Positions 1-7,271 of a stretch of DNA of 7,271 nt are shown one piece after another; the stretch's first letter is position 1; each line of letters begins with the position of its first letter. Origin of the DNA: a virus (lineage: Duplodnaviria > Heunggongvirae > Uroviricota > Caudoviricetes); the IMG/VR virus record IMGVR_UViG_2548876942_000003, positions 1 to 7,271 of that record; one strand, 5' to 3'. The position numbers and the translations under genes are program-made. Under the pieces are notes generated by a model. That model worked only from the letters and a program-made list of their open reading frames with translations. It was not told the DNA's origin and did no database searches.

Positions 1-345
1 ATTTTTCTTTCCAAAATCAGACCCCACATTTAATAAGACAGCATGATTTATTAATTATCTAAAAATCTCTGCAATGATATTGTATTACATAAATCTTCAA
101 ATAACATTAATCATTCTATCTTGAAACTTGTCTTAAACAAGATTACCTCTTTACTCTGCTGAGTCAAACAGCCTAGCCCACTCACTTGTATCACTCATCT
201 TTAACATCGCAGCGTAGTTTCTAACTGGAGCATACCGAATATGACCGCTATTAACATTATGCCGTAACTGCATATTTAGATATTGGATTAGGGGCATCGC
301 GCTGACAGAACTCAAATGCGGGCTCTTTGCCGCCCGCCCCCGCAG

Positions 346-389
346 AATCACGCTATCCGACGCAACCAGCTGCGACGGATAGCGTGATT
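346..389. terminator. Strong stem-loop 5 nt beyond the gene A stop codon; possible terminator or RNA-stabilising hairpin
   Basis: Seen in sequence: perfect 14-bp inverted repeat AATCACGCTATCCG (346-359) / CGGATAGCGTGATT (376-389), with an inner 4-bp stem CGCA/TGCG (361-364/371-374) and 6-nt loop. On the + strand it is followed by TTAATTCATTCTTT (moderately T-rich); on the - strand it is followed by G/C-rich sequence, so a U-tract exists only for rightward transcription. Function is inferred. Confidence 0.4.
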
Positions 390-393
390 TAAT

Positions 394-3006
394 TCATTCT
401 TTAGGGTAGCGACCTTCCGCACCCGCCAGCATTTTTTGATATTCCCCGACCGGATCAAACCGCAGGTGCGTGGCATCAATGCCGTGGTTATCCCGTAAAT
501 GTTCCCATAATTTATTCACCGTCCGTGACTCATTAGGTAATTGACGCGTTATCAACTGGCCGCCAGCACTGGCTTGATAAAATTTCCCGCCAATCTCCAG
601 ACGGCTCCCCATTAACAGCGAAACGGCCTGAATCTCTGAAATCTCAACCAAACACAACGCCGCATCAGCCAGCAGACTGGCAACCGCAGGGGCAAGCGCT
701 GCCCGCCTGGCTTTATCAGCCACCGATCTGGCCTCGGTTTTTTCCACGGCAGAACGCCAGGCAACATCTAATTCGCTCCCTGGTTCATAAGGTGATCCGC
801 TGTGCCGCCTTTTGAATGGTGCTTCACGTAGTCGCCGTATCAATTTGCGCCGCGTTGGCTGGTCCATATTTTCAAAATCGACGATTTCCTCTTCTGATTC
901 TTCTGTAATACCCTCCACACCAGGCGAAAAATCGGTGATTTTTTCGTCTTCCGTAGAGTTATTGACAGAACTCCAAGCGTCGCCGGTTGGCGACGGCAAA
1001 AGGTCAACCCCCAAACCGGGGCCGCTTTTGGCCCCAGTGACGGTTTTGGATTTGGCTCGAATTTTCCACTTAACCAGACGGGTGCAAATACGGGAGGCAT
1101 CCCCCAGACGCGGCGACCAGACCCCGAAAACCTTTTCGGGGATCTCACAATAAGCATTCATTTCATCAGCGGGCTGATAGGCCAGACGTACGACATAGTT
1201 TTCTCGCGGGATCAAAACACCACCCTGGCGGATGATGTAAGTAGCAAAGCATCCGACATCGGCAGCGGCGCAAACCGCATCCATTGCAGGATCCACAAGC
1301 AATGGCGCACCACGTTTGAAGGTACTGTCAATTTTCTGTCGGGTCGTGATCTGATTACTAAGTTTGCGCAGCTCGCGGTAAACCGATATGGGCGGCTGTC
1401 CGATGGGCTGAAACTGGCGGATACGGTGAAGCGATGCCCAGGCCATTGCATATTTGGCGCTTTCATTCAGCGGCTTGCCGCTTTCGTCGTCCAGTTCACC
1501 GGCCAGCGCGTGGCCGTCGATATTCTTCGAAATGTATTTAGCGATGTATGCCGTTGCTGACCCTTTCCGTGGGTCCATTTTTTTTGACTTGAAACGAGCG
1601 CCGGTATTGCGGCCCAGCTCGTCGCGGTCTTCCGCAATGAAGTAGGTGCGAAGGATCGCAACCGTGGCTTTGACTTGCTCTTGTGGCATAAACAGCAACG
1701 CGTGCCAGTGTGGTGTCCCATCGTGATGCGGCTCGGCGACACGGAAGCCATAAGGGCGCAAATCTTCGCGTTTCAGTTTGGCGGTTGCCCGGTTCCACAC
1801 ACGGCATAAATAGCACTGCGCCTGGGCGACGGTGGAATGATTCCATTTGGCGTTATGGTGGCCGGATGCAATATTACTGTGATATTTCGACGGGCAAGTG
1901 ATTGTCAGGAAGATGCCAACATCGCCGCGACTTTGGGCAACAAGCTCAACCCCAGCCATTCGGGCCATAAGCTCATGGCGACGAATAGCCGGGTTTGACG
2001 TGGATTTATTAATCATGTCCTCAAGTGAGGAAACGTTGCCGTCTTCGTCTACCAGTTCATGACTTTTGAAAAAATCCCGGTTTTTACGGCGCTGTTCCTG
2101 CCACTCGATCAGGCTGGAAGCGCTAACGTATGCGTGCGCTTTTTTATTTACCGCGCCAACGGCTCGCAGCTGGTTTTCGCGCCAGTCACAACGCAGGCGC
2201 CAGATTTTGCGCCCCCACCAGTCAGGCGAAGCCATACGCAAAATGGCCGTACATATCCGATCACGTTCCCACGGCGCATACCATGCAGGCGGCACAATGC
2301 GAAGCGCCAGCATTTCGCGGCCCAGATGACAATAAAGCCAGTCCAGTTCTTCGACGTTCATGTCGGAAACATTCTGTCCCAGGGCTTCGCATTCCGTCCC
2401 CAGCATTTCAGCCATGCGGCTGGCGATCTCATTAGCGGCGCTTAGTGCTTCCCGCTTTGTGAAATCAGCCAGCCGTTGCCAGCGCCCGAACCAGTACGCG
2501 GCCAGTTCGCCGGTGATATCAGGCGAAACACCTTGCCTTGTGCGCACAACATCAAGACGCAGCAATGATTTTTTCACTGTCCCCATAAGAAAATCATTGG
2601 TGTGTCTGGTTTCACGGTTGACCCGTAACCACTCAATTTTTTTACGCCAGACTTCACGAATGAAGAACGGCTCTGATAATAAACGTGCTTCGACACCTTC
2701 TGGCGTATTGGCCCAGGCTGCCGCCGTGGCTTTAGCGGCTTCCATTTCTTGCCGGATTATATTTTGATGGGCGGCCAGTGGCAGGCCGCATGGTTCGTAC
2801 CTGTCCAGCGCCTGGATGAGCGCATCACGGTCACGAACTTCGGCGGGATTGTAACCGGCACGTTTGAAGATGTGATCGATATGTTTTTTTACGGCAGGAT
2901 GATGCGCCACCGCCCCAGCAAGCGGGGCGATTTTTTTCGGTTCATAGATGTACGGGCCAACAGCTGGACGCGGTGCGTTCCAAGGCCATGCGAAAGCGTT
3001 AGTCAT
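394..3006 (-). CDS. A: Phage replication initiation endonuclease gpA (HUH rolling-circle initiator, P2 gene A family)
   Basis: 870-codon ORF with ATG at 3006-3004 and TGA at 396-394. The translation contains a HUH-type metal-binding motif (PHWHALLF, encoded about 1700-1713) and a paired-tyrosine active-site motif (YIAKYISK, encoded about 1534-1548) of the phiX174 gpA / P2 gpA type. Position at the end of the cox-led early operon matches P2 gene order. The ORF is longer than the P2 gpA length I recall (about 760 aa), so the exact start is less certain than the identity. Confidence 0.9.
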   Translation of the reverse strand: MTNAFAWPWNAPRPAVGPYIYEPKKIAPLAGAVAHHPAVKKHIDHIFKRAGYNPAEVRDRDALIQALDRYEPCGLPLAAHQNIIRQEMEAAKATAAAWANTPEGVEARLLSEPFFIREVWRKKIEWLRVNRETRHTNDFLMGTVKKSLLRLDVVRTRQGVSPDITGELAAYWFGRWQRLADFTKREALSAANEIASRMAEMLGTECEALGQNVSDMNVEELDWLYCHLGREMLALRIVPPAWYAPWERDRICTAILRMASPDWWGRKIWRLRCDWRENQLRAVGAVNKKAHAYVSASSLIEWQEQRRKNRDFFKSHELVDEDGNVSSLEDMINKSTSNPAIRRHELMARMAGVELVAQSRGDVGIFLTITCPSKYHSNIASGHHNAKWNHSTVAQAQCYLCRVWNRATAKLKREDLRPYGFRVAEPHHDGTPHWHALLFMPQEQVKATVAILRTYFIAEDRDELGRNTGARFKSKKMDPRKGSATAYIAKYISKNIDGHALAGELDDESGKPLNESAKYAMAWASLHRIRQFQPIGQPPISVYRELRKLSNQITTRQKIDSTFKRGAPLLVDPAMDAVCAAADVGCFATYIIRQGGVLIPRENYVVRLAYQPADEMNAYCEIPEKVFGVWSPRLGDASRICTRLVKWKIRAKSKTVTGAKSGPGLGVDLLPSPTGDAWSSVNNSTEDEKITDFSPGVEGITEESEEEIVDFENMDQPTRRKLIRRLREAPFKRRHSGSPYEPGSELDVAWRSAVEKTEARSVADKARRAALAPAVASLLADAALCLVEISEIQAVSLLMGSRLEIGGKFYQASAGGQLITRQLPNESRTVNKLWEHLRDNHGIDATHLRFDPVGEYQKMLAGAEGRYPKE

Positions 3007-3893
3007 TCACATATGCCCGTAGAAGTCGCAACCTTGAGAATACCGATCACCTCACTGGCGGCCCCTCGGGTAATGGCGTTCGCGCTGACAGAACGGTTAA
3101 CGCTAATTTCCTGGAAGTTGAAAGAGCGATAAATCTCGCAGGTGGCTGGGGTGTCGCTATTGGACAGGATCACCGGCGAACCAGTAAGGCGGTTAATATC
3201 CAGCAGAGCGGCAGCTAACTGGCGATGCTCTTTAATCCCAAACGGGGCGGTGTGGTATTGGGTGAAATTAGCGGTTTCGCTTGTTGGCAGGTATGGCGGA
3301 TCGCAATAGATAACCGCGTCACTACCAATCATGATTTTTAACGTGCTCTGGAAATCGCAGCACACGAAAATAGCTTTCGTGTCGTTAGCTTTTTCAGAGA
3401 ATAAACGGATTTGTTCTTCCGGGAAGTAAAGCGGGGTTTTGTGACGCCCAAAGGGAACGTTATATCCACCCTGTTGGTTGTAGCGTACTACGCCGTTATA
3501 TCCGTGACGGTTCAGGTAAAGAAATTGTGCTGCACGAAGAATCTTGCCCGCGTCCGGCCCATCTTCAAACACACTGCGCAATGACAGTAGGTCACGGGCG
3601 CGGGCGTTGAAATCATCGCGGATCCACTTATAGCCGTCTTTATCGCCGTACACTTTAAACAGTGGGCGAGCAGCGTCGATCACCGCATCAGGCCAGCGGG
3701 TTATCTGGCGATACAGGTTAATTAAATCTGGGTTGATATCACCCAGGATATAACGGCGATATTCAGTATTGAGGAAAACAGAAGCACCGCCGACAAACGG
3801 TTCCACCAGGCAATCGGCTTTCGGCAGAATCGGCAGCAAATCAGGCATAACGCGGCCTTTACCACCGGGCCATTTAACGAGAGATCGAATCAT
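3003..3893 (-). CDS. dam: DNA adenine methyltransferase, Dam family (N6-adenine, likely GATC-specific)
   Basis: 296-aa ORF with ATG at 3893-3891. N-terminal WPGGK motif, SAM-binding EPFVGGASVF (FxGxG) and catalytic DPPY motif (VIYCDPPYLPTS), plus extended similarity to E. coli Dam as recalled from memory. Shine-Dalgarno GGAGAAAG lies upstream. The stop codon overlaps the gene A start (ATGA, 3003-3006), implying translational coupling. GATC specificity is inferred from family membership. Confidence 0.9.
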   Translation of the reverse strand: MIRSLVKWPGGKGRVMPDLLPILPKADCLVEPFVGGASVFLNTEYRRYILGDINPDLINLYRQITRWPDAVIDAARPLFKVYGDKDGYKWIRDDFNARARDLLSLRSVFEDGPDAGKILRAAQFLYLNRHGYNGVVRYNQQGGYNVPFGRHKTPLYFPEEQIRLFSEKANDTKAIFVCCDFQSTLKIMIGSDAVIYCDPPYLPTSETANFTQYHTAPFGIKEHRQLAAALLDINRLTGSPVILSNSDTPATCEIYRSFNFQEISVNRSVSANAITRGAASEVIGILKVATSTGICE

Positions 3894-3963
3894 TTTTACT
3901 TTCTCCAGGGTGCAAGAAGCCCGACGCGTTAGCGCCTGTTTCTTTTTTGTGGGTAGTTAGTTG

Positions 3964-4353
3964 TTAATTTACTGCGTTATCTGGCGCGGGTGGTTTGTCG
4001 CGTATCGCCTGAATTTCGGCGCGTGGTGCGGCGTAGTCCTCAAATTCCCACGGCATTGATGCTGCAAATTCGGAAAGGCGCTTAATGCCCATCAAAAGGC
4101 ACGTTTGCTCCTTTTCGGTTAGATTTTCGTAAGTACAACCCAGCTGTTTGGCGGTCAGCTTCGGCATTCCGGCTATGTATCTGGACGCATCGTTTGCCAG
4201 GATGAAAATCACCTTTTTACAGGCATCATCCAGGCGGTTAAAACGGGTTGCAGTGTCGTTCACGCGTGAGACGTTCAAACTTGCTTGCAGTCGAGCCCGT
4301 TGCTCTAAGAACTGGCGACGGCCTGGCTGTTGTCCTGTCTTATCCATCAACAT
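3964..4353 (-). CDS. Hypothetical early-operon protein (about 129 aa), function unknown
   Basis: ORF in the early-operon orientation. The ORF track begins at a GTG (4359); I prefer the ATG at 4353-4351, which is preceded by GGGGAGGTGG with good spacing. Tightly packed, 15 nt after the stop of the upstream ORF. No motif I can recognise. Confidence 0.55.
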   Translation of the reverse strand: MLMDKTGQQPGRRQFLEQRARLQASLNVSRVNDTATRFNRLDDACKKVIFILANDASRYIAGMPKLTAKQLGCTYENLTEKEQTCLLMGIKRLSEFAASMPWEFEDYAAPRAEIQAIRDKPPAPDNAVN

Positions 4354-4368
4354 AACCACCTCCCCGAA

Positions 4369-4662
4369 CTACGCAAAGATGCCCATTAAGCGGGAAAACC
4401 AGCGGCGCTTATTACGCGGGCGCGACATAAACGGTACACGGCAGTTTTTAACAAATTGAACATCTGCCGCTTTAGGCTGGAAGAACCGCCCGTCCGGGGT
4501 TTCAATCCAGCCGCGTTGATGCTGACGGTGGGTGATCTGCTGGCCGTGGGTGAGCAGGCTGGCGAGTGAAGGGCACTGTGTTAAGTCCATGTTGATCTCC
4601 GTCATATTGAAAAGATGCCGGGATATAACCCCACGCCCGGCACGTGTTTCCTGTGATAACAT
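4369..4662 (-). CDS. Hypothetical small early-operon protein (97 aa from ATG 4662; alternatively 73 aa from ATG 4590)
   Basis: ORF in the early-operon orientation. The ATG at 4662 has only a weak AGG upstream; the internal in-frame ATG at 4590-4588 is preceded by GGAG with a 6-nt spacer and may be the true start. Basic, Arg-rich C-terminus (RPRNKRRWFSR). No recognisable domain. Confidence 0.45.
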   Translation of the reverse strand: MLSQETRAGRGVISRHLFNMTEINMDLTQCPSLASLLTHGQQITHRQHQRGWIETPDGRFFQPKAADVQFVKNCRVPFMSRPRNKRRWFSRLMGIFA

Positions 4663-4728
4663 CGCTATGCCTGTGTAACTTTGAGCAGTGAATCAGGCAT
4701 AACAATCACCAACACAGAAGGAGTTGTA

Positions 4729-5208
4729 ATGAAATTCAATGTGTTTTTTAAAAAAGACCACGGATCACACTGGGTACTTTCCGATGGTTCCCCCCTCTTT
4801 GAAAGTCCACTATTTGAAACAAGACCTAAAGCCATTGATGACCTTGAGAACTTTGTAGGCCTTATGGAATCGCCAATTTTTATTAAGGCTGGTGACGATA
4901 TTAATTCTGGCGATACAGAAAACTGTCCATCTGTAGTTATTTCTTTAAAACAGCATGAATCGCTATGGGGCTGGGAGTTATTTATCTCAAAAAATGGACA
5001 ACTGTCTAAAGTTACCGAAAGTTCAGGTAATGGCTTTGACTCATTAGAATTAGCAAAGCAAAGTGCCCAGTTTTTTATTAATGCCATTATCGACGCTCCT
5101 ATTCTGGATCAAGCCGATGTCGCTATCCCCGGTATGCACTTCTCAAAATCTTTCGAGGAAACGCACCACATTGGTGACATTCACCCATCCAGTAAATGGT
5201 TCAAATAA
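4729..5208 (+). CDS. Moron-like protein with tandem YegP/DUF1508-like repeats (159 aa), encoded antisense to the early operon
   Basis: The track ORF 4681-5208 starts at TTG; the in-frame ATG at 4729 is preceded by a strong Shine-Dalgarno (GAAGGAG, 6-nt spacer). The region is visibly AT-rich (about 37-40% G+C by hand count of a sample) versus more than 50% in A and dam. The translation shows two repeats whose hydrophobic pattern resembles the YegP/DUF1508 repeat as I recall it (KFNVFFKKDHGSHWVLSDGSPLFESP...AIDDLENFV and WGWELFISKNGQLSKVTESSGNGFDSLELAKQSAQFFINAI). The family assignment is from memory, not a search. Confidence 0.55.
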   Translation: MKFNVFFKKDHGSHWVLSDGSPLFESPLFETRPKAIDDLENFVGLMESPIFIKAGDDINSGDTENCPSVVISLKQHESLWGWELFISKNGQLSKVTESSGNGFDSLELAKQSAQFFINAIIDAPILDQADVAIPGMHFSKSFEETHHIGDIHPSSKWFK

Positions 5209-5212
5209 TCCA

Positions 5213-5560
5213 TCACTGCGGCGTTATCGTTTTTCTTGTGCGAGGTGGAACATCTCGCACGGTTTCTTCATCAACCATCAACTCATAAATTCTGATGCTG
5301 TTATCACCGTTTGATACGTCATCAAATACCTGAAAAAGAAAACTCATGAACTGCTCATAAGTGACGCTAGGTTCAACATACCCACCAGTAACCTCAATTA
5401 ACGGTGTTAGCCCTGAATTATCTGCTAAAGAAACGCAGTCCAACTTATCCAAACGGAAAAAGTAATTACCGCAAGGCGTTCTTTTGTCCTTAATCCGTAT
5501 AAATACATTTGATAACGCTGTATGACTATCTGAGAGCTTAAAGATTTTTGCCGTGTCCAT
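5213..5560 (-). CDS. Hypothetical AT-rich early protein (115 aa) immediately downstream of cox
   Basis: ORF with ATG at 5560-5558, 22 nt after the cox stop codon, same strand as the early operon. AT-rich like the neighbouring plus-strand gene. No recognisable domain, signal peptide or transmembrane segment in the translation. Its stop (5213-5215) lies 4 bp from the stop of the convergent plus-strand gene. Confidence 0.5.
   Translation of the reverse strand: MDTAKIFKLSDSHTALSNVFIRIKDKRTPCGNYFFRLDKLDCVSLADNSGLTPLIEVTGGYVEPSVTYEQFMSFLFQVFDDVSNGDNSIRIYELMVDEETVRDVPPRTRKTITPQ
5238..5268 (+). terminator. Candidate intrinsic terminator for the plus-strand moron gene
   Basis: 7-bp GC-rich inverted repeat GTGCGAG (5238-5244) / CTCGCAC (5254-5260) with a 9-nt loop, followed by GGTTTCTT. 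It begins 30 nt after the TAA of the 4729-5208 gene. A T-tract is present only on the + strand. Short stem and interrupted T-run, so weak. Confidence 0.3.
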
Positions 5561-5582
5561 TTTATTCAGCCCTGTAAGTTGC

Positions 5583-5858
5583 TTATGATGGATTGCCCAG
5601 ACCCAACCACATTAACCACCCTTCCCTAATTTCCTTGGGACGACTCTCATACGCCATTTTCATTCCGTTGTTCCAGGCTGGGAGGTAGACCCAGTACTCA
5701 CCTGCCCGCCCTGAAGTTGATTGCGGATCAGTCATCTCAACTACGGGTAGCTTTCCTTTTTCAATCATTCCCCTTACTGCTGCCGGTGTTTTGCCGATCA
5801 GTTTTGCAAACTCCTGGTACGGGACAGCATCACTAATACTGACAACTTGTTTGCTCAT
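5583..5858 (-). CDS. cox: Cox-type excisionase / lytic-switch repressor of Pc (P2 Cox family)
   Basis: 91-aa ORF, the same length as P2 Cox, with close similarity to the P2 Cox sequence as recalled (PYQEFAKLIGK...GKLPV..MTDPQS.SGRAGEYWVYLPAWNNG...YESRPKEIR.GWLMWLGLG). Shine-Dalgarno GAGGT lies 7 nt upstream of the ATG at 5858. Divergent from the C repressor gene, as in P2. Confidence 0.9.
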   Translation of the reverse strand: MSKQVVSISDAVPYQEFAKLIGKTPAAVRGMIEKGKLPVVEMTDPQSTSGRAGEYWVYLPAWNNGMKMAYESRPKEIREGWLMWLGLGNPS

Positions 5859-5981
5859 CTGCTAACCTCGTATCTAGATCTAACCAATGGGTTTCAAAGT
5901 TCTTTAATGGGCTTTGATGCACATTGACAACATCTAAAACCACATTAGAGAGTTTCGATAATATTAGAGGATCTTGATAAC
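5859..5981. promoter_or_regulatory. cox-C divergent intergenic switch region (Pe/Pc, operator region)
   Basis: 123-bp spacer between the divergent cox and C start codons. Besides the Pe elements it contains a plus-strand perfect TTGACA (5924-5929), a plus-strand TTTAAT (5903-5908) that could serve as the Pc -10 in a face-to-face arrangement, overlapping palindromes ATCTAGAT / TAGATCTA (5873-5883) that include a GATC, and one Cox-box-like TTAAAG on the minus strand (about 5902-5907). Pc cannot be placed uniquely from sequence alone. Confidence 0.6.
5944..5969. promoter_or_regulatory. Direct repeats ATTAGAG flanking the Pe -10 region; candidate C-repressor operator half-sites
   Basis: ATTAGAG occurs at 5944-5950 and 5963-5969 (extended ATTAGAGAG / ATTAGAGGA), 19 bp apart. 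One copy overlaps the candidate Pe -10 and the other lies just downstream of the predicted start. P2 C is known to bind direct repeats flanking the Pe -10; the assignment here is by analogy. Confidence 0.4.
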
Positions 5982-5988
5982 ATGTCAA
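5954..5988 (-). promoter_or_regulatory. Candidate early promoter Pe (sigma70-type) driving cox and the early operon
   Basis: Seen in sequence on the minus strand: perfect -35 TTGACA (plus-strand TGTCAA, 5983-5988, overlapping the first codons of C), a 16-bp spacer, and -10 TAATAT (plus-strand ATATTA, 5961-5966). Predicted start is near 5954, giving a leader of about 95 nt to the cox ATG. A GATC (5970-5973) sits in the spacer. Assignment as Pe is by analogy to the P2 switch. Confidence 0.5.
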
Positions 5989-6281
5989 CGCCCATAAGCG
6001 AAAAACTAGCGTTAGTTCGTGAGTCTGAGCGACTAAACCGGAAGCAATTCGCTGAAATAACAGGAGTTCCTTACAGTTCTCTAACTTATTATGAGAGCGG
6101 AAGAACTACGCCCCCCACTGACGTAACAATGAAAATTCTCCAGCACCCCAGATTTAGCAAATACACGTTGTGGTTTATGACCGATCAGGTTGCTCCCGAA
6201 GCCGGTCAGATAGCACCGGCCCTCGCACACTTTGGGCAAGATGTAACAACATCGCAGCACTCAGACCAAAAGATTGGTTAA
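5982..6281 (+). CDS. C: Immunity repressor C (P2 C family, 99 aa)
   Basis: 99-aa ORF, the same length as P2 C, with strong similarity to P2 C as recalled (ISEK..L.R.SE.L.R.Q.A..TGVPY..L.YYESGR.TPPTDV.M.ILQ.P.F.KYTLWFMT.Q.APE.GQIAPALAHFGQ). Shine-Dalgarno AGAGGA upstream. Divergent from cox and followed by int, as in P2. Confidence 0.9.
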   Translation: MSTPISEKLALVRESERLNRKQFAEITGVPYSSLTYYESGRTTPPTDVTMKILQHPRFSKYTLWFMTDQVAPEAGQIAPALAHFGQDVTTSQHSDQKIG

Positions 6282-6318
6282 CCATTCACCAGGCGCATCT
6301 TTATTACAAAATTTGTTT

Positions 6319-6350
6319 ACTTGTTGCCAAATACAACAAGCACAACAAGT
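6319..6350 (+). repeat. Inverted plus direct repeats in the C-int spacer (possible attenuator or protein-binding site)
   Basis: ACTTGTTG (6319-6326) is the reverse complement of CAACAAGT (6343-6350), an 8-bp stem with a 16-nt loop. ACAACAAG is directly repeated at 6333-6340 and 6342-6349. Followed by a short TTTGTG. Lies in the 145-bp A/C-rich spacer between C and int. Confidence 0.3.
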
Positions 6351-6426
6351 TTGTGAAATCTAAGCGCAAGGGAAAATTAACAGCAGCAAAGAAAACACAA
6401 CCTAGCACCATTCATTTGGGGGTCTT

Positions 6427-7233
6427 ATGACAATTAAGAAACTCGATGATGGTCGTTATGAAGTGGACATCAGACCTGCAGGGCGCAACGGAAAGCGCAT
6501 CCGCAGGAAATTTGACAAGAAAAGTGAGGCTGTAGCTTTTGAGAAACACACTCAATACAACCATCACGATAAAGAATGGTTGGCTAAACCGACAGATAAG
6601 CGGCATCTGTCTGAATTAACGAAAGTCTGGTGGGATCTGAAAGGCAAGCATGAAGAACACGGAAAATCTAATTTGGGTAAGATTGAAATCTTTACCCGGA
6701 TCACTGATGACCCTTGCGCGTTCCAGATAACCAAAGCGCTTATTAGCCAGTACAGCATGACTCGCAGAGGGCAAGGCATAAAACCGGCCAGTATTAACCG
6801 CGATCTTACCTGCCTGAGTGGTATGTTTACTGCGCTAATTGATGCGGAATTGTTCTTTGGTGAACATCCTTTCAGAGGGATGAAAAAGCTCAAGGAGCAG
6901 AAACCAGAAACCGGCTATCTGACGCAGGAAGAAATAACATTGTTGCTTGCCAATCTTGACGGGGACAACAAGAAAATCGCGATTCTCTGTTTAAGTACCG
7001 GCGCTCGATGGGGTGAGGCCGCGAAACTGAAAGCTGAGAACGTAATACAGAATCGGGTGACGTTCGTTAAAACAAAGACGAACAAACCGCGTACTGTCCC
7101 TATCTCTGAGGAAGTGGCTGTAATGATTGCGGGTAAAGGTTATCTGTTCCCTGATGCCTCATACCCGAAGTTCAGGCGAACAATGAAAGATGTAAAACCA
7201 GATCTACCGGACGGGCGTAAGCGTACAGCCTGA
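6427..7233 (+). CDS. int: P2-type tyrosine integrase, N-terminal 268 codons only; the C-terminal catalytic region (HxLRH box and active-site Tyr) is not encoded before the in-frame stop, so likely truncated or disrupted
   Basis: ATG at 6427. The translation matches the P2 Int N-terminal and core-binding region as recalled (MTIKKLDDGRYEVDIRPAGRNGKRIRRKFDKKSEAVAFEK ... LSTGARWGEAAKLKAEN ... VTFVKTKTNKPRTVPIS) up to ...KPDLP (about 7213). It then diverges and hits TGA at 7231-7233. P2 Int is 337 aa, and none of the three forward frames after 7210 encodes an HxLRH-like motif. Confidence 0.75.
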   Translation: MTIKKLDDGRYEVDIRPAGRNGKRIRRKFDKKSEAVAFEKHTQYNHHDKEWLAKPTDKRHLSELTKVWWDLKGKHEEHGKSNLGKIEIFTRITDDPCAFQITKALISQYSMTRRGQGIKPASINRDLTCLSGMFTALIDAELFFGEHPFRGMKKLKEQKPETGYLTQEEITLLLANLDGDNKKIAILCLSTGARWGEAAKLKAENVIQNRVTFVKTKTNKPRTVPISEEVAVMIAGKGYLFPDASYPKFRRTMKDVKPDLPDGRKRTA

Positions 7234-7271
7234 ACCGTCTGGTCAGAATCTGACGAATTAGACAAAGTGGT

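Follow-up and report, generated by a model that had tools for sequence, protein, structure and literature searches.

The window considered here, a stretch of 7,271 nucleotides (nt) spanning positions 1 to 7,271 of IMG/VR record IMGVR_UViG_2548876942_000003, covers the early genes and immunity functions of an Escherichia coli prophage of the P2-like type (Peduoviridae) inserted between yegQ and yegR (Table 1). Between the fil and cox genes of its early operon lie two open reading frames (ORFs), ORF159 and ORF115, and the comparisons presented below indicate with good confidence that they constitute exchangeable cargo placed behind a conserved expression platform. As had been noticed in the initial annotation, the two ORFs are convergent with stops 4 bp apart (the stop codons end at 5208 and 5213), the 115-amino acid (aa) ORF being co-oriented with the early operon and the 159-aa ORF lying on the opposite strand, and the strong Shine-Dalgarno sequence reported there for the latter is indeed present, 5 nt before the ATG. 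Both ORFs are genuine genes under purifying selection, since they are annotated in RefSeq, their ratios of nonsynonymous to synonymous divergence (dN/dS) over six allele pairs are low (0.12-0.26 for ORF159 and 0.06-0.15 for ORF115) and the fold predicted for ORF159 is a confident one. For fil, the 73-aa ATG is used in RefSeq and the same shorter start is favoured by the alignment with Fil of Salmonella phage SI7; with this start at 4590, therefore, positions 4591-4728 are intergenic, and the 97-aa reading from the ATG at 4662, which would cross the H1 hairpin and the ORF159 promoter, is probably an over-extension. We propose that 4591-5582 would represent one allele of a recurrent antisense cargo slot, located directly downstream of cox in the early operon (driven by the early promoter, Pe) of enterobacterial P2-like phages.

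The evidence that carries this proposal comes from relatives with conserved flanks. In phage SI7, cox directly overlaps fil with nothing between them, an empty site, and its A, dam, p131 and Fil proteins are 93-98% identical to those of the window; nucleotide homology between the two ends at about 4576. The alignment of flanks versus segment that the initial annotation had called for was run with blastn against L105, a viral contig whose Cox, Fil and A proteins are 92, 81 and 82% identical to those of the window: the flanks aligned (4370-4733 and 5577-7208, at 74-81% nucleotide identity), whereas 4734-5576 was without homology, its place in L105 being taken by a 91-aa gene on the + strand and a 63-aa gene on the - strand. 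A 91-aa + strand cargo as in L105 was also found in locus L157, with a Cox protein identical to that of the window and a nearly identical upstream region. In the same locus (8098-8649, P0022 cluster), residues 1-108 of ORF115 are fused to about 70 residues that form the separate 63-aa gene in L105, and the joint lies just beyond the TVRDVPPRT motif, itself encoded by the hairpin of the ORF159 terminator. Because the L157 junction, as read from the protein sequences, falls at this hairpin (5238-5260), the comparison suggests that the hairpin region may be a recombination joint for cargo exchange. In a Citrobacter locus (L004), synonymous divergence (dS) is 0.02-0.17 in the flanks, versus 1.2 in ORF159 and 2.2 in ORF115; the 64% identity of ORF159, set in a backbone of 95-100% identity, was therefore not put down to fast evolution, since dN/dS is low and a dS of 1.2-2.2 points to allele replacement. 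The reverse decoupling was observed in L021, where A and the integrase are 35 and 32% identical to those of the window, yet ORF159 and ORF115 are 65 and 72% identical. Taken as a mechanism, homologous recombination in the flanks (the platform; cox or the terminator hairpin) would exchange the sequence behind the platform, and what was exchanged here would be ORF159 together with the convergent early gene ORF115, an AT-rich segment of presumably foreign origin that is present in very distant P2-like backbones as well.

The initial annotation had described the segment as AT-rich relative to flanking cox, dam and A genes of more than 50% G+C, which holds for dam (50.7%) and A (53.7%) but not for cox (48.6%). 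Over 4663-5582 the G+C content is 40.2%, compared with 52.9% over 394-4590 and 45.4% over 5583-7271. The contrast is clear on the replication side, where p131 and fil reach 51.0 and 55.9% and G+C at third codon positions (GC3) is 54-65% in A, dam, p131 and fil versus 36-39% in the two ORFs (ORF159: G+C 39.6%, GC3 35.6%; ORF115: G+C 40.2%, GC3 38.8%), and modest on the right side, with 47.0% in C and 46.3% in int besides the value for cox. At all 14 loci measured, the cassette has 36-44% G+C between flanks of 45-55%; these loci span Escherichia, Citrobacter and Serratia contexts and unassigned contigs, the Serratia-type flanks having 54-55%. The cassette is also rare: it was found in 20 of 5426 complete E. 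coli genomes (19 copies at 99% identity or more and one diverged allele), of which at least 1227 hold a P2-type A gene. By tblastn, neither ORF matched anything in 50,697 isolated phage genomes, a set in which the presence of P2 itself was not directly checked, and two pattern-based scans, limited by the pattern tool, gave no relative among GTDB species representatives. The ORF159 family counts 24 representatives among 1.84 billion and is confined to the early regions of P2-like phages. The initial annotation had read this segment as a cargo island, an interpretation that conservation of the ORFs in most P2-like phages would have contradicted; they are absent from SI7 and from all but those 20 E. 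coli genomes, and the interpretation is supported by the empty site of SI7, the swaps in L105 and L157, this rarity, the persistently low G+C and the decoupled divergence.

Table 1. Genes and predicted signals of the window.
Feature	Position	Strand	Details
A	394-3006	-	PF05840 (GPA)
dam, D12 methylase	3003-3893	-	PF02086
p131, 131-aa protein	3964-4359	-	phrog_7428
fil, 73 aa, left conserved flank of slot	4369-4590	-	Phage_186_Fil PF10893 E 4e-12; phrog_816
Promoter/leader platform	4591-4733	+	aligns with L105, L157, L004
H1 hairpin	4617-4622 with 4636-4641	+	GCCGGG with CCCGGC; unique in the window
H1' stem	4631-4635 with 4643-4646	+	CCACG with CGTG; overlaps H1, mutually exclusive
Extended -10 promoter element (predicted)	4652-4662	+	TGTGaTAACAT; TG 4654-4655, hexamer TAACAT 4657-4662
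H2 stem-loop	4666-4673 with 4694-4701	+	TATGCCTG with CAGGCATA; begins 3-4 nt after the -10 hexamer
Shine-Dalgarno sequence	4718-4723	+	AAGGAG; GGA invariant across 14 loci
ORF159, antisense cargo gene	4729-5208	+	ATG start
Swapped non-homologous segment	4734-5576	no strand	from cargo start codon (left) to cox stop (right)
ORF115, early-operon gene, variable	5213-5560	-	co-oriented with cox, fil, dam, A
Intrinsic terminator of ORF159 transcript (predicted)	5238-5272	+	9-bp stem 5238-5246/5252-5260, then GGTTTCTTCATC
cox, right conserved flank of slot	5583-5858	-	PF10743 E 5e-43
C repressor	5982-6281	+	
int	6427 onward	+	integrase PF00589

Upstream of ORF159, about 140 nt align among the window, L105, L157 and L004 despite the different cargo downstream, and this platform is thus part of the flank that is kept and lies outside the segment that is swapped. 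It is predicted to supply the gene behind it with a GC-rich double hairpin, an extended -10 promoter of the sigma-70 type, a CA-rich leader and a strong ribosome-binding site, and in most alleles also with a 5'-terminal stem-loop. The promoter motif TG-n-TA-nnn-T is invariant in 14 of 14 loci, which were gathered via protein homology alone and not via the motif, and it stands 62-68 nt before the ATG. No -35 match was found for the ORF159 promoter; the consensus promoter scanner requires a -35 element and hence passed over the extended -10 site. The expected -35 position is occupied by the overlapping stems H1 and H1' (4617-4646), an arrangement that occurs once in the window and was matched by none of 200 shuffles. 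Changes on both sides of the helix were seen in two of the six pairs of H1, two of the four pairs of H1' and five of the eight pairs of H2, and the arms of H1' covary among loci (CCATG/CATGG, CCACG/CGTGG, CGCG/CGCG and CCCTG/CAGGG), so that across 51 distinct platforms it has a mean of 4.76 contiguous pairs versus 3.30 with shuffled partners (maximum 4.00 in 1000). Considered together, the three helices have 90% of their cells paired and 9 of 18 pairs changing on both sides, a score reached by 0 of 500 shuffles; slid controls pair at 24-44%. Since H2, present in 37 of the 51 distinct leaders, starts so close to the -10 hexamer, the ORF159 mRNA is predicted to begin with this hairpin at its 5' end and may be stabilised by it.

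The pair H1/H1' could be an operator or a switch, or could act within the early transcript as a signal for RNA processing or insulation. As an intrinsic terminator, neither stem is convincing, because no consistent U-tract follows on either strand across loci, and an H-type pseudoknot formed by both was rejected on geometrical grounds, the connecting loops of 0-1 nt being too short. Operators for the C repressor shared with the ORF159 promoter were rejected as well, the sole common sequence being the 9-mer TGATAACAT (4654 and 5975), which is compatible with chance; no LexA-box-like CTGT-N8-ACAG was seen by eye, and no Rfam family matched anywhere in the window at E up to 1. An antisense shadow ORF (4665-5087, - strand, 140 aa, in early-operon orientation) is open over 120-185 codons in many loci and is probably not a gene, because synonymous-codon shuffles of ORF159 are equally poor in antisense stops (P 0.03-1.0); its openness is explained by the amino acid composition of ORF159, which has no Tyr, and the frame is broken in L020, L022, L023 and L028.

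The same platform precedes other genes. Motif scans of IMG/VR with the H1 hairpin and the extended -10 element, the counts of which are lower bounds, gave at least 120 matches, of which 74 among those listed lie in recognisable P2-like early regions. In these 74, wherever the markers are present, A is on the - strand to the left and C/int on the + strand to the right, without conflicts (all three markers being present in 41), and the cargo always runs against the direction of the early operon. When the ORFs with starts 32-73 nt past the -10 element are grouped, they form at least 21 clusters of 46-168 aa that are unrelated to one another, and only one of these is the ORF159 family. The platform also occurs in three Yersinia phages and in the isolated Salmonella phages SEN4 and SEN5, where it is followed by a + strand gene annotated at 60 aa. 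Most slot alleles inspected (L062, L149, L151, L256, which is SEN4, and others) consist of a convergent pair in which the platform's + strand gene faces a variable early gene on the - strand, with sizes of 155 and 202 aa, 60 and 137, 68 and 61, or 60 and 158, and several of the cargos of about 60 aa resemble related helical hairpins ending in '..EKYP..'. In the literature searched there was no description of the platform and no paper mentioning the RefSeq accessions or PHROG identifiers of these proteins; the BTP5 transcriptome section likewise offered nothing of relevance.

Such conservation could also mean that the antisense promoter platform is itself the functional unit and the ORFs its passengers, convergent transcription or antisense RNA serving to damp a leaky early operon and thereby to stabilise lysogeny. 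The platform is far more conserved than the cargo, which is freely replaced, and it always points towards cox, C and int; before reaching fil, the early transcript has to traverse some 620 nt that are antisense and untranslated, and the geometry recalls both interference between convergent promoters and, in phage 186, the establishment transcript of pE/CII. Nevertheless, we regard this explanation as unlikely. Both ORFs are under purifying selection and ORF159 folds well, which argues that the cargo is not junk, and the strong, conserved Shine-Dalgarno sequence in the leader argues for translation. Moreover, the predicted strong and conserved terminator would end the + strand transcript about 60 nt past the ORF159 stop, short of cox and Pe, and SI7 is without the platform, which is thus not a core component of the switch. 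P2 presumably lacks it too, judging from established knowledge of its early operon.

Under the exchangeable-cargo reading, in turn, ORF159 would be a complete autonomous unit, with promoter, leader, ORF and a terminator within the coding end of ORF115. Because its promoter is independent of the C-repressed Pe, ORF159 is somewhat more probably expressed than silent in the repressed prophage, and ORF115 would be made only when Pe fires, in early lytic growth. ORF159 encodes an acidic, soluble protein with an isoelectric point (pI) of 5.0 and no signal peptide by inspection. Its AlphaFold2 model (pLDDT 85, pTM 0.79) has two beta-beta-beta-alpha-beta units, a packed C-terminal segment and a disordered end of eight residues. 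Across the 24 family members (22-70% identity) W15, D150 and P153 are invariant and W80, W82 and H152, among others, nearly so, D150, H152 and P153 forming a conserved D-x-H-P in the C-terminal tail. The modelled fold is YegP-like, and the protein is not assigned to the corresponding family PF07411 because the sequence evidence is concordant but sub-threshold. ORF159 itself had no Pfam hit and stayed below the PF07411 gathering score; one of the 24 family members reached E 0.005 (17 bits versus a cut-off of 22) and two further distant ones E 0.08-0.1. A profile search of the PDB placed 6q2z first, at E 0.79, and hhalign against a YegP alignment returned a probability of 3%. No hit was obtained with Foldseek in BFVD at E up to 0.001, and sequence searches of solved structures gave no match.

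Relatives of ORF159 with a single repeat (87-91 aa), composed of one YegP-like unit and an 'AGVPID.MHL' segment, were observed in the IMG/VR contigs L160, L162, L182, L197, L201 and L230. At least two of them, those of L160 and L162, are located 250-265 nt downstream of the platform, perhaps as the second gene of a cargo unit. In the literature, DUF1508 proteins are described as homodimers or tandem pseudo-dimers, a role in Menshen as a sensor of the PC4/Whirly kind has been proposed for DUF1508, and homologues of YegP sit downstream of the immune-operon regulators capK and capS; by analogy, these immune links are leads and not tests. The ORF159 product may be a binder without enzymatic activity, built as a pseudo-dimer from two repeats of the YegP/DUF1508 type, that would serve the lysogen, most likely against incoming phages or satellites, or else in stress or nucleic-acid transactions. 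An exclusion or defence function is advanced tentatively, being less probable than not on present grounds.

The cargo might instead work during infection, as counter-defence or host-takeover factors, with ORF115, and perhaps ORF159, as small acidic early inhibitors of immunity or of P4-like satellites. For ORF159 this fits poorly with its arrangement, since the early anti-defence genes known so far normally share the orientation of the early operon and ORF159 is antisense with its own predicted promoter and terminator, and similarities to anti-CRISPR proteins were non-significant and ranked under the UPF0339 hits. We consider this possibility improbable, to about the same degree as that of a purely regulatory platform.

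ORF115 is likewise acidic (pI 4.9), but its structure was poorly predicted (pLDDT 59); neither structural nor profile comparisons gave any relatives for it, and a relationship with ORF159 or YegP was rejected at hhalign probabilities of 0.2 and 0.7%. Its position with respect to ORF159 is nearly constant, the two genes being convergent within 40 nt in 29 of the 30 loci that hold both, the remote pairs of L025 and L026 included. The candidate terminator that had been proposed for the 159-aa gene is borne out as a prediction (stem 5236-5262, then TTTCTTCATC) and offers a simple physical reason for this linkage, as it is embedded in ORF115, within its 3' coding end. The hairpin begins about 30 nt past the ORF159 stop and has a GC-rich stem of 9-12 bp; its conservation extends over 12 loci, in which 94% of cells are paired. 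Among these, pair 21-33 occurs as GC, AU or GU, pair 23-31 is a G.U in 8 of the 12 sequences, pairing only on the + strand, and the T-rich tail is on the + strand only. Between the window and L004 the stem changes on both sides (GAG/CTC to GGG/CCC) at third codon positions, which, in our own translation, leaves the residues of ORF115 unchanged.

The constant pairing could be taken as the mark of an obligate two-component system, in which ORF159 would be a lysogen exclusion or abortive effector and ORF115 a Pe-driven antidote conferring self-immunity on induction. Besides the convergence, identity levels of both proteins roughly track each other, and opposite expression logic follows from the anatomy. 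However, residues 1-108 of ORF115 occur with different cargo in L157 and the P0022 cluster (20 members), and eleven uncut loci hold an ORF159-family member without a detectable ORF115 relative (L027, L028, L229, L233, L247 and six loci with single-repeat forms). ORF159 is intact in 19 of 19 E. coli copies and ORF115 is interrupted in 7 of them, an IS3-family insertion sequence (IS) accounting for six or seven, although this shows only that lysogens tolerate ORF159 without ORF115. Because the linkage is more simply explained by the embedded terminator, we favour a physical link rather than an obligate partnership and find the two-component explanation doubtful, more so than either of the alternatives above. 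A type II toxin-antitoxin module was rejected for similar reasons: the genes are convergent separate transcription units, either occurs alone, and ORF115 is IS-disrupted with ORF159 intact in 7 of 19 genomes. The IS3-family element splits ORF115 in six genomes of E. coli of the type that makes Shiga toxin (L002 6632-7845; about 5252 in the window). IS hits in this early region are recurrent, as strain RM13322 has another interruption near window position 5495 and strain SW071610 carries an IS1 within the p131/fil stretch (window 3900-4662).

That ORF159 and ORF115 are ordinary backbone early genes with an incidentally low G+C, equivalents of orf78 and B of P2, whose position on the P2 map we take to correspond to the slot, would account for the lack of a recognisable B gene in the window, but it is effectively refuted by SI7, which is without both ORFs on a replication module 93-98% identical, by the unrelated genes in L105 and L157, by the rarity among P2-type prophages, by the antisense orientation of one gene, and by searches in which neither protein had a Pfam, NCBIfam or PADLOC hit or resembled any isolated phage in the tblastn set.

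As a whole, and with its weight on anatomy and evolution, the exchangeable-cargo reading is considered likely, and several observations count against it. The conservation of the terminator is confounded by coding constraint on ORF115 (TVRD.P.RT motif). The predicted ORF159 promoter may be weak or regulated, and H1/H1' at the -35 position could make expression conditional. Near-clonality of the 19 E. coli copies means that the pattern of intact ORF159 and disrupted ORF115 amounts to only one or two independent events. The IMG/VR counts are biased to the motif used in the scans, and the slot is a minority feature of E. coli P2 relatives, the two platform variants searched occurring in 19 and 17 complete genomes (about 36 of 5426). 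As to function, ten cargo representatives had no significant Pfam hit and every PHROG match was of 'unknown function', a search of PADLOC-DB v2.0.0, which covers systems to 2023, with ORF159, ORF115, Fil and p131 produced no match at E up to 1, and the present results do not identify the cargo as a defence system.

Some further features of the prophage were observed around the slot. Direct repeats ATTAGAG at 5944-5950 and 5963-5969, 19 bp apart, are candidate operators of the C repressor and overlap the predicted Pe promoter (- strand; -35 TTGACA at 5988-5983, -10 at about 5966-5961), one repeat covering the -10 hexamer and the other sitting downstream of it. The int gene departs from all relatives at about 7217 and meets a premature stop at 7233; the last 55-66 nt of the window (7217-7271) match an element present in 3406 of the 5426 E. 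coli genomes, in up to 22 copies per genome, plasmids included. These nucleotides most likely represent the terminus of an IS element that has inserted into int, so that this prophage copy probably cannot excise. Between A and ogr the same prophage has a 925-aa hypothetical protein, whose start reaches positions 1-14 of the window, 15-393 being intergenic with 40% G+C, and an AbiH-family abortive-infection gene adjoins yegQ at the tail end. The coordinates of this other cargo, which occupies known positions, are L029 10919-11884, L001 1-1352 and window 1-393.

P2-like prophages are a major and well-mined source of immune systems, and mining has centred on two hotspots. What the present analysis adds is a recurrent slot with a platform, mapped exchange boundaries and a predicted YegP-like fold class for the antisense gene. 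It points to a variable locus of a third kind, located within the early operon, where expression hardware is kept and the coding cassette is swapped. The platform motif provides a sequence handle for a systematic harvest of cargo, which would give a compact candidate set (46-170 aa) for functional screens, and the finding places a putative YegP/DUF1508-like fold, recurrent beside immune operons, in a context that allows a direct phenotype test. It is even possible, although less likely than not, that a dedicated platform shuffling dozens of unrelated small genes acts as a reservoir from which the lysogen expresses factors against phages or satellites, or modulators of lysogeny, with ORF159 as a YegP-like nucleic-acid or protein binder that excludes competitors and H1/H1' as a switch tying cargo expression to the prophage state. 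If the cargo were neutral or purely regulatory, the slot would still be a clean natural case of cassette exchange at a fixed phage promoter.

Comparison with known systems places these elements more precisely. Like the YegP/UPF0339/DUF1508 proteins (PF07411; PDB 2K49 SO_3888, 6Q2Z HVO_2922 and 3BID NMB1088), the ORF159 model has three strands followed by a helix in each repeat, with an aromatic residue conserved in strand 2 and a small one in the helix, and it would be a tandem-repeat pseudo-dimer, as in DUF1508, with single-repeat relatives that could homodimerise. It differs from YegP in an extra strand after each helix, in the conserved C-terminal segment of about 35 residues that holds D150, H152 and P153, and in having no significant sequence match. 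In the switch of phage 186, pE/CII establishment transcription is directed towards cI-int and is antisense to apl, and here too a promoter within the early lytic operon would fire towards repressor and integrase genes, antisense to early genes; in contrast to 186, no CII-type activator site was identified, a terminator is predicted before cox and the transcript would code for a protein. Interference between convergent promoters has been described (PMC5001618).

The known moron positions of P2-like phages are old/tin between A and Q and Z/fun between G and FI (PMC9122126; PMC3573123; bioRxiv 10.1101/2024.10.15.618418; PMC13586616), and a hotspot between a tail protein and CI is also described in the literature. 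The initial annotation had considered the cox-proximal site a less described location, and it is indeed little described, but the interval between integrase and primase is already listed as a minor P2 defence hotspot with 8% of P2 systems (PMC13586616), and the cassette, with its variable cargo, lies within it, between int (6427 onward) and A (394-3006). Like the morons of the P2 hotspots, this cassette consists of AT-rich accessory genes that vary among similar P2-like prophages, are recombined between conserved flanks, often run against their neighbours and have their own predicted signals. It departs from the classical hotspots in being inside the early operon directly after cox, in its cargo being mostly tiny proteins without match to known defence models, and in presumably being driven by a conserved shared platform, the cargo bringing no promoter of its own. 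In the definition of the Hendrix group, a moron is an autonomous gene with its own promoter and terminator and a deviating composition, present in some relatives only. ORF159 resembles the lambdoid morons in this sense, as it is present or absent among close relatives at the same position, deviates in composition through its low G+C, and has promoter-like and terminator-like signals, the terminator being its own in silico. Unlike in the lambdoid morons, however, its promoter would belong to the phage backbone, with only the coding part and the terminator being exchanged, and that terminator is embedded in a convergent phage gene.

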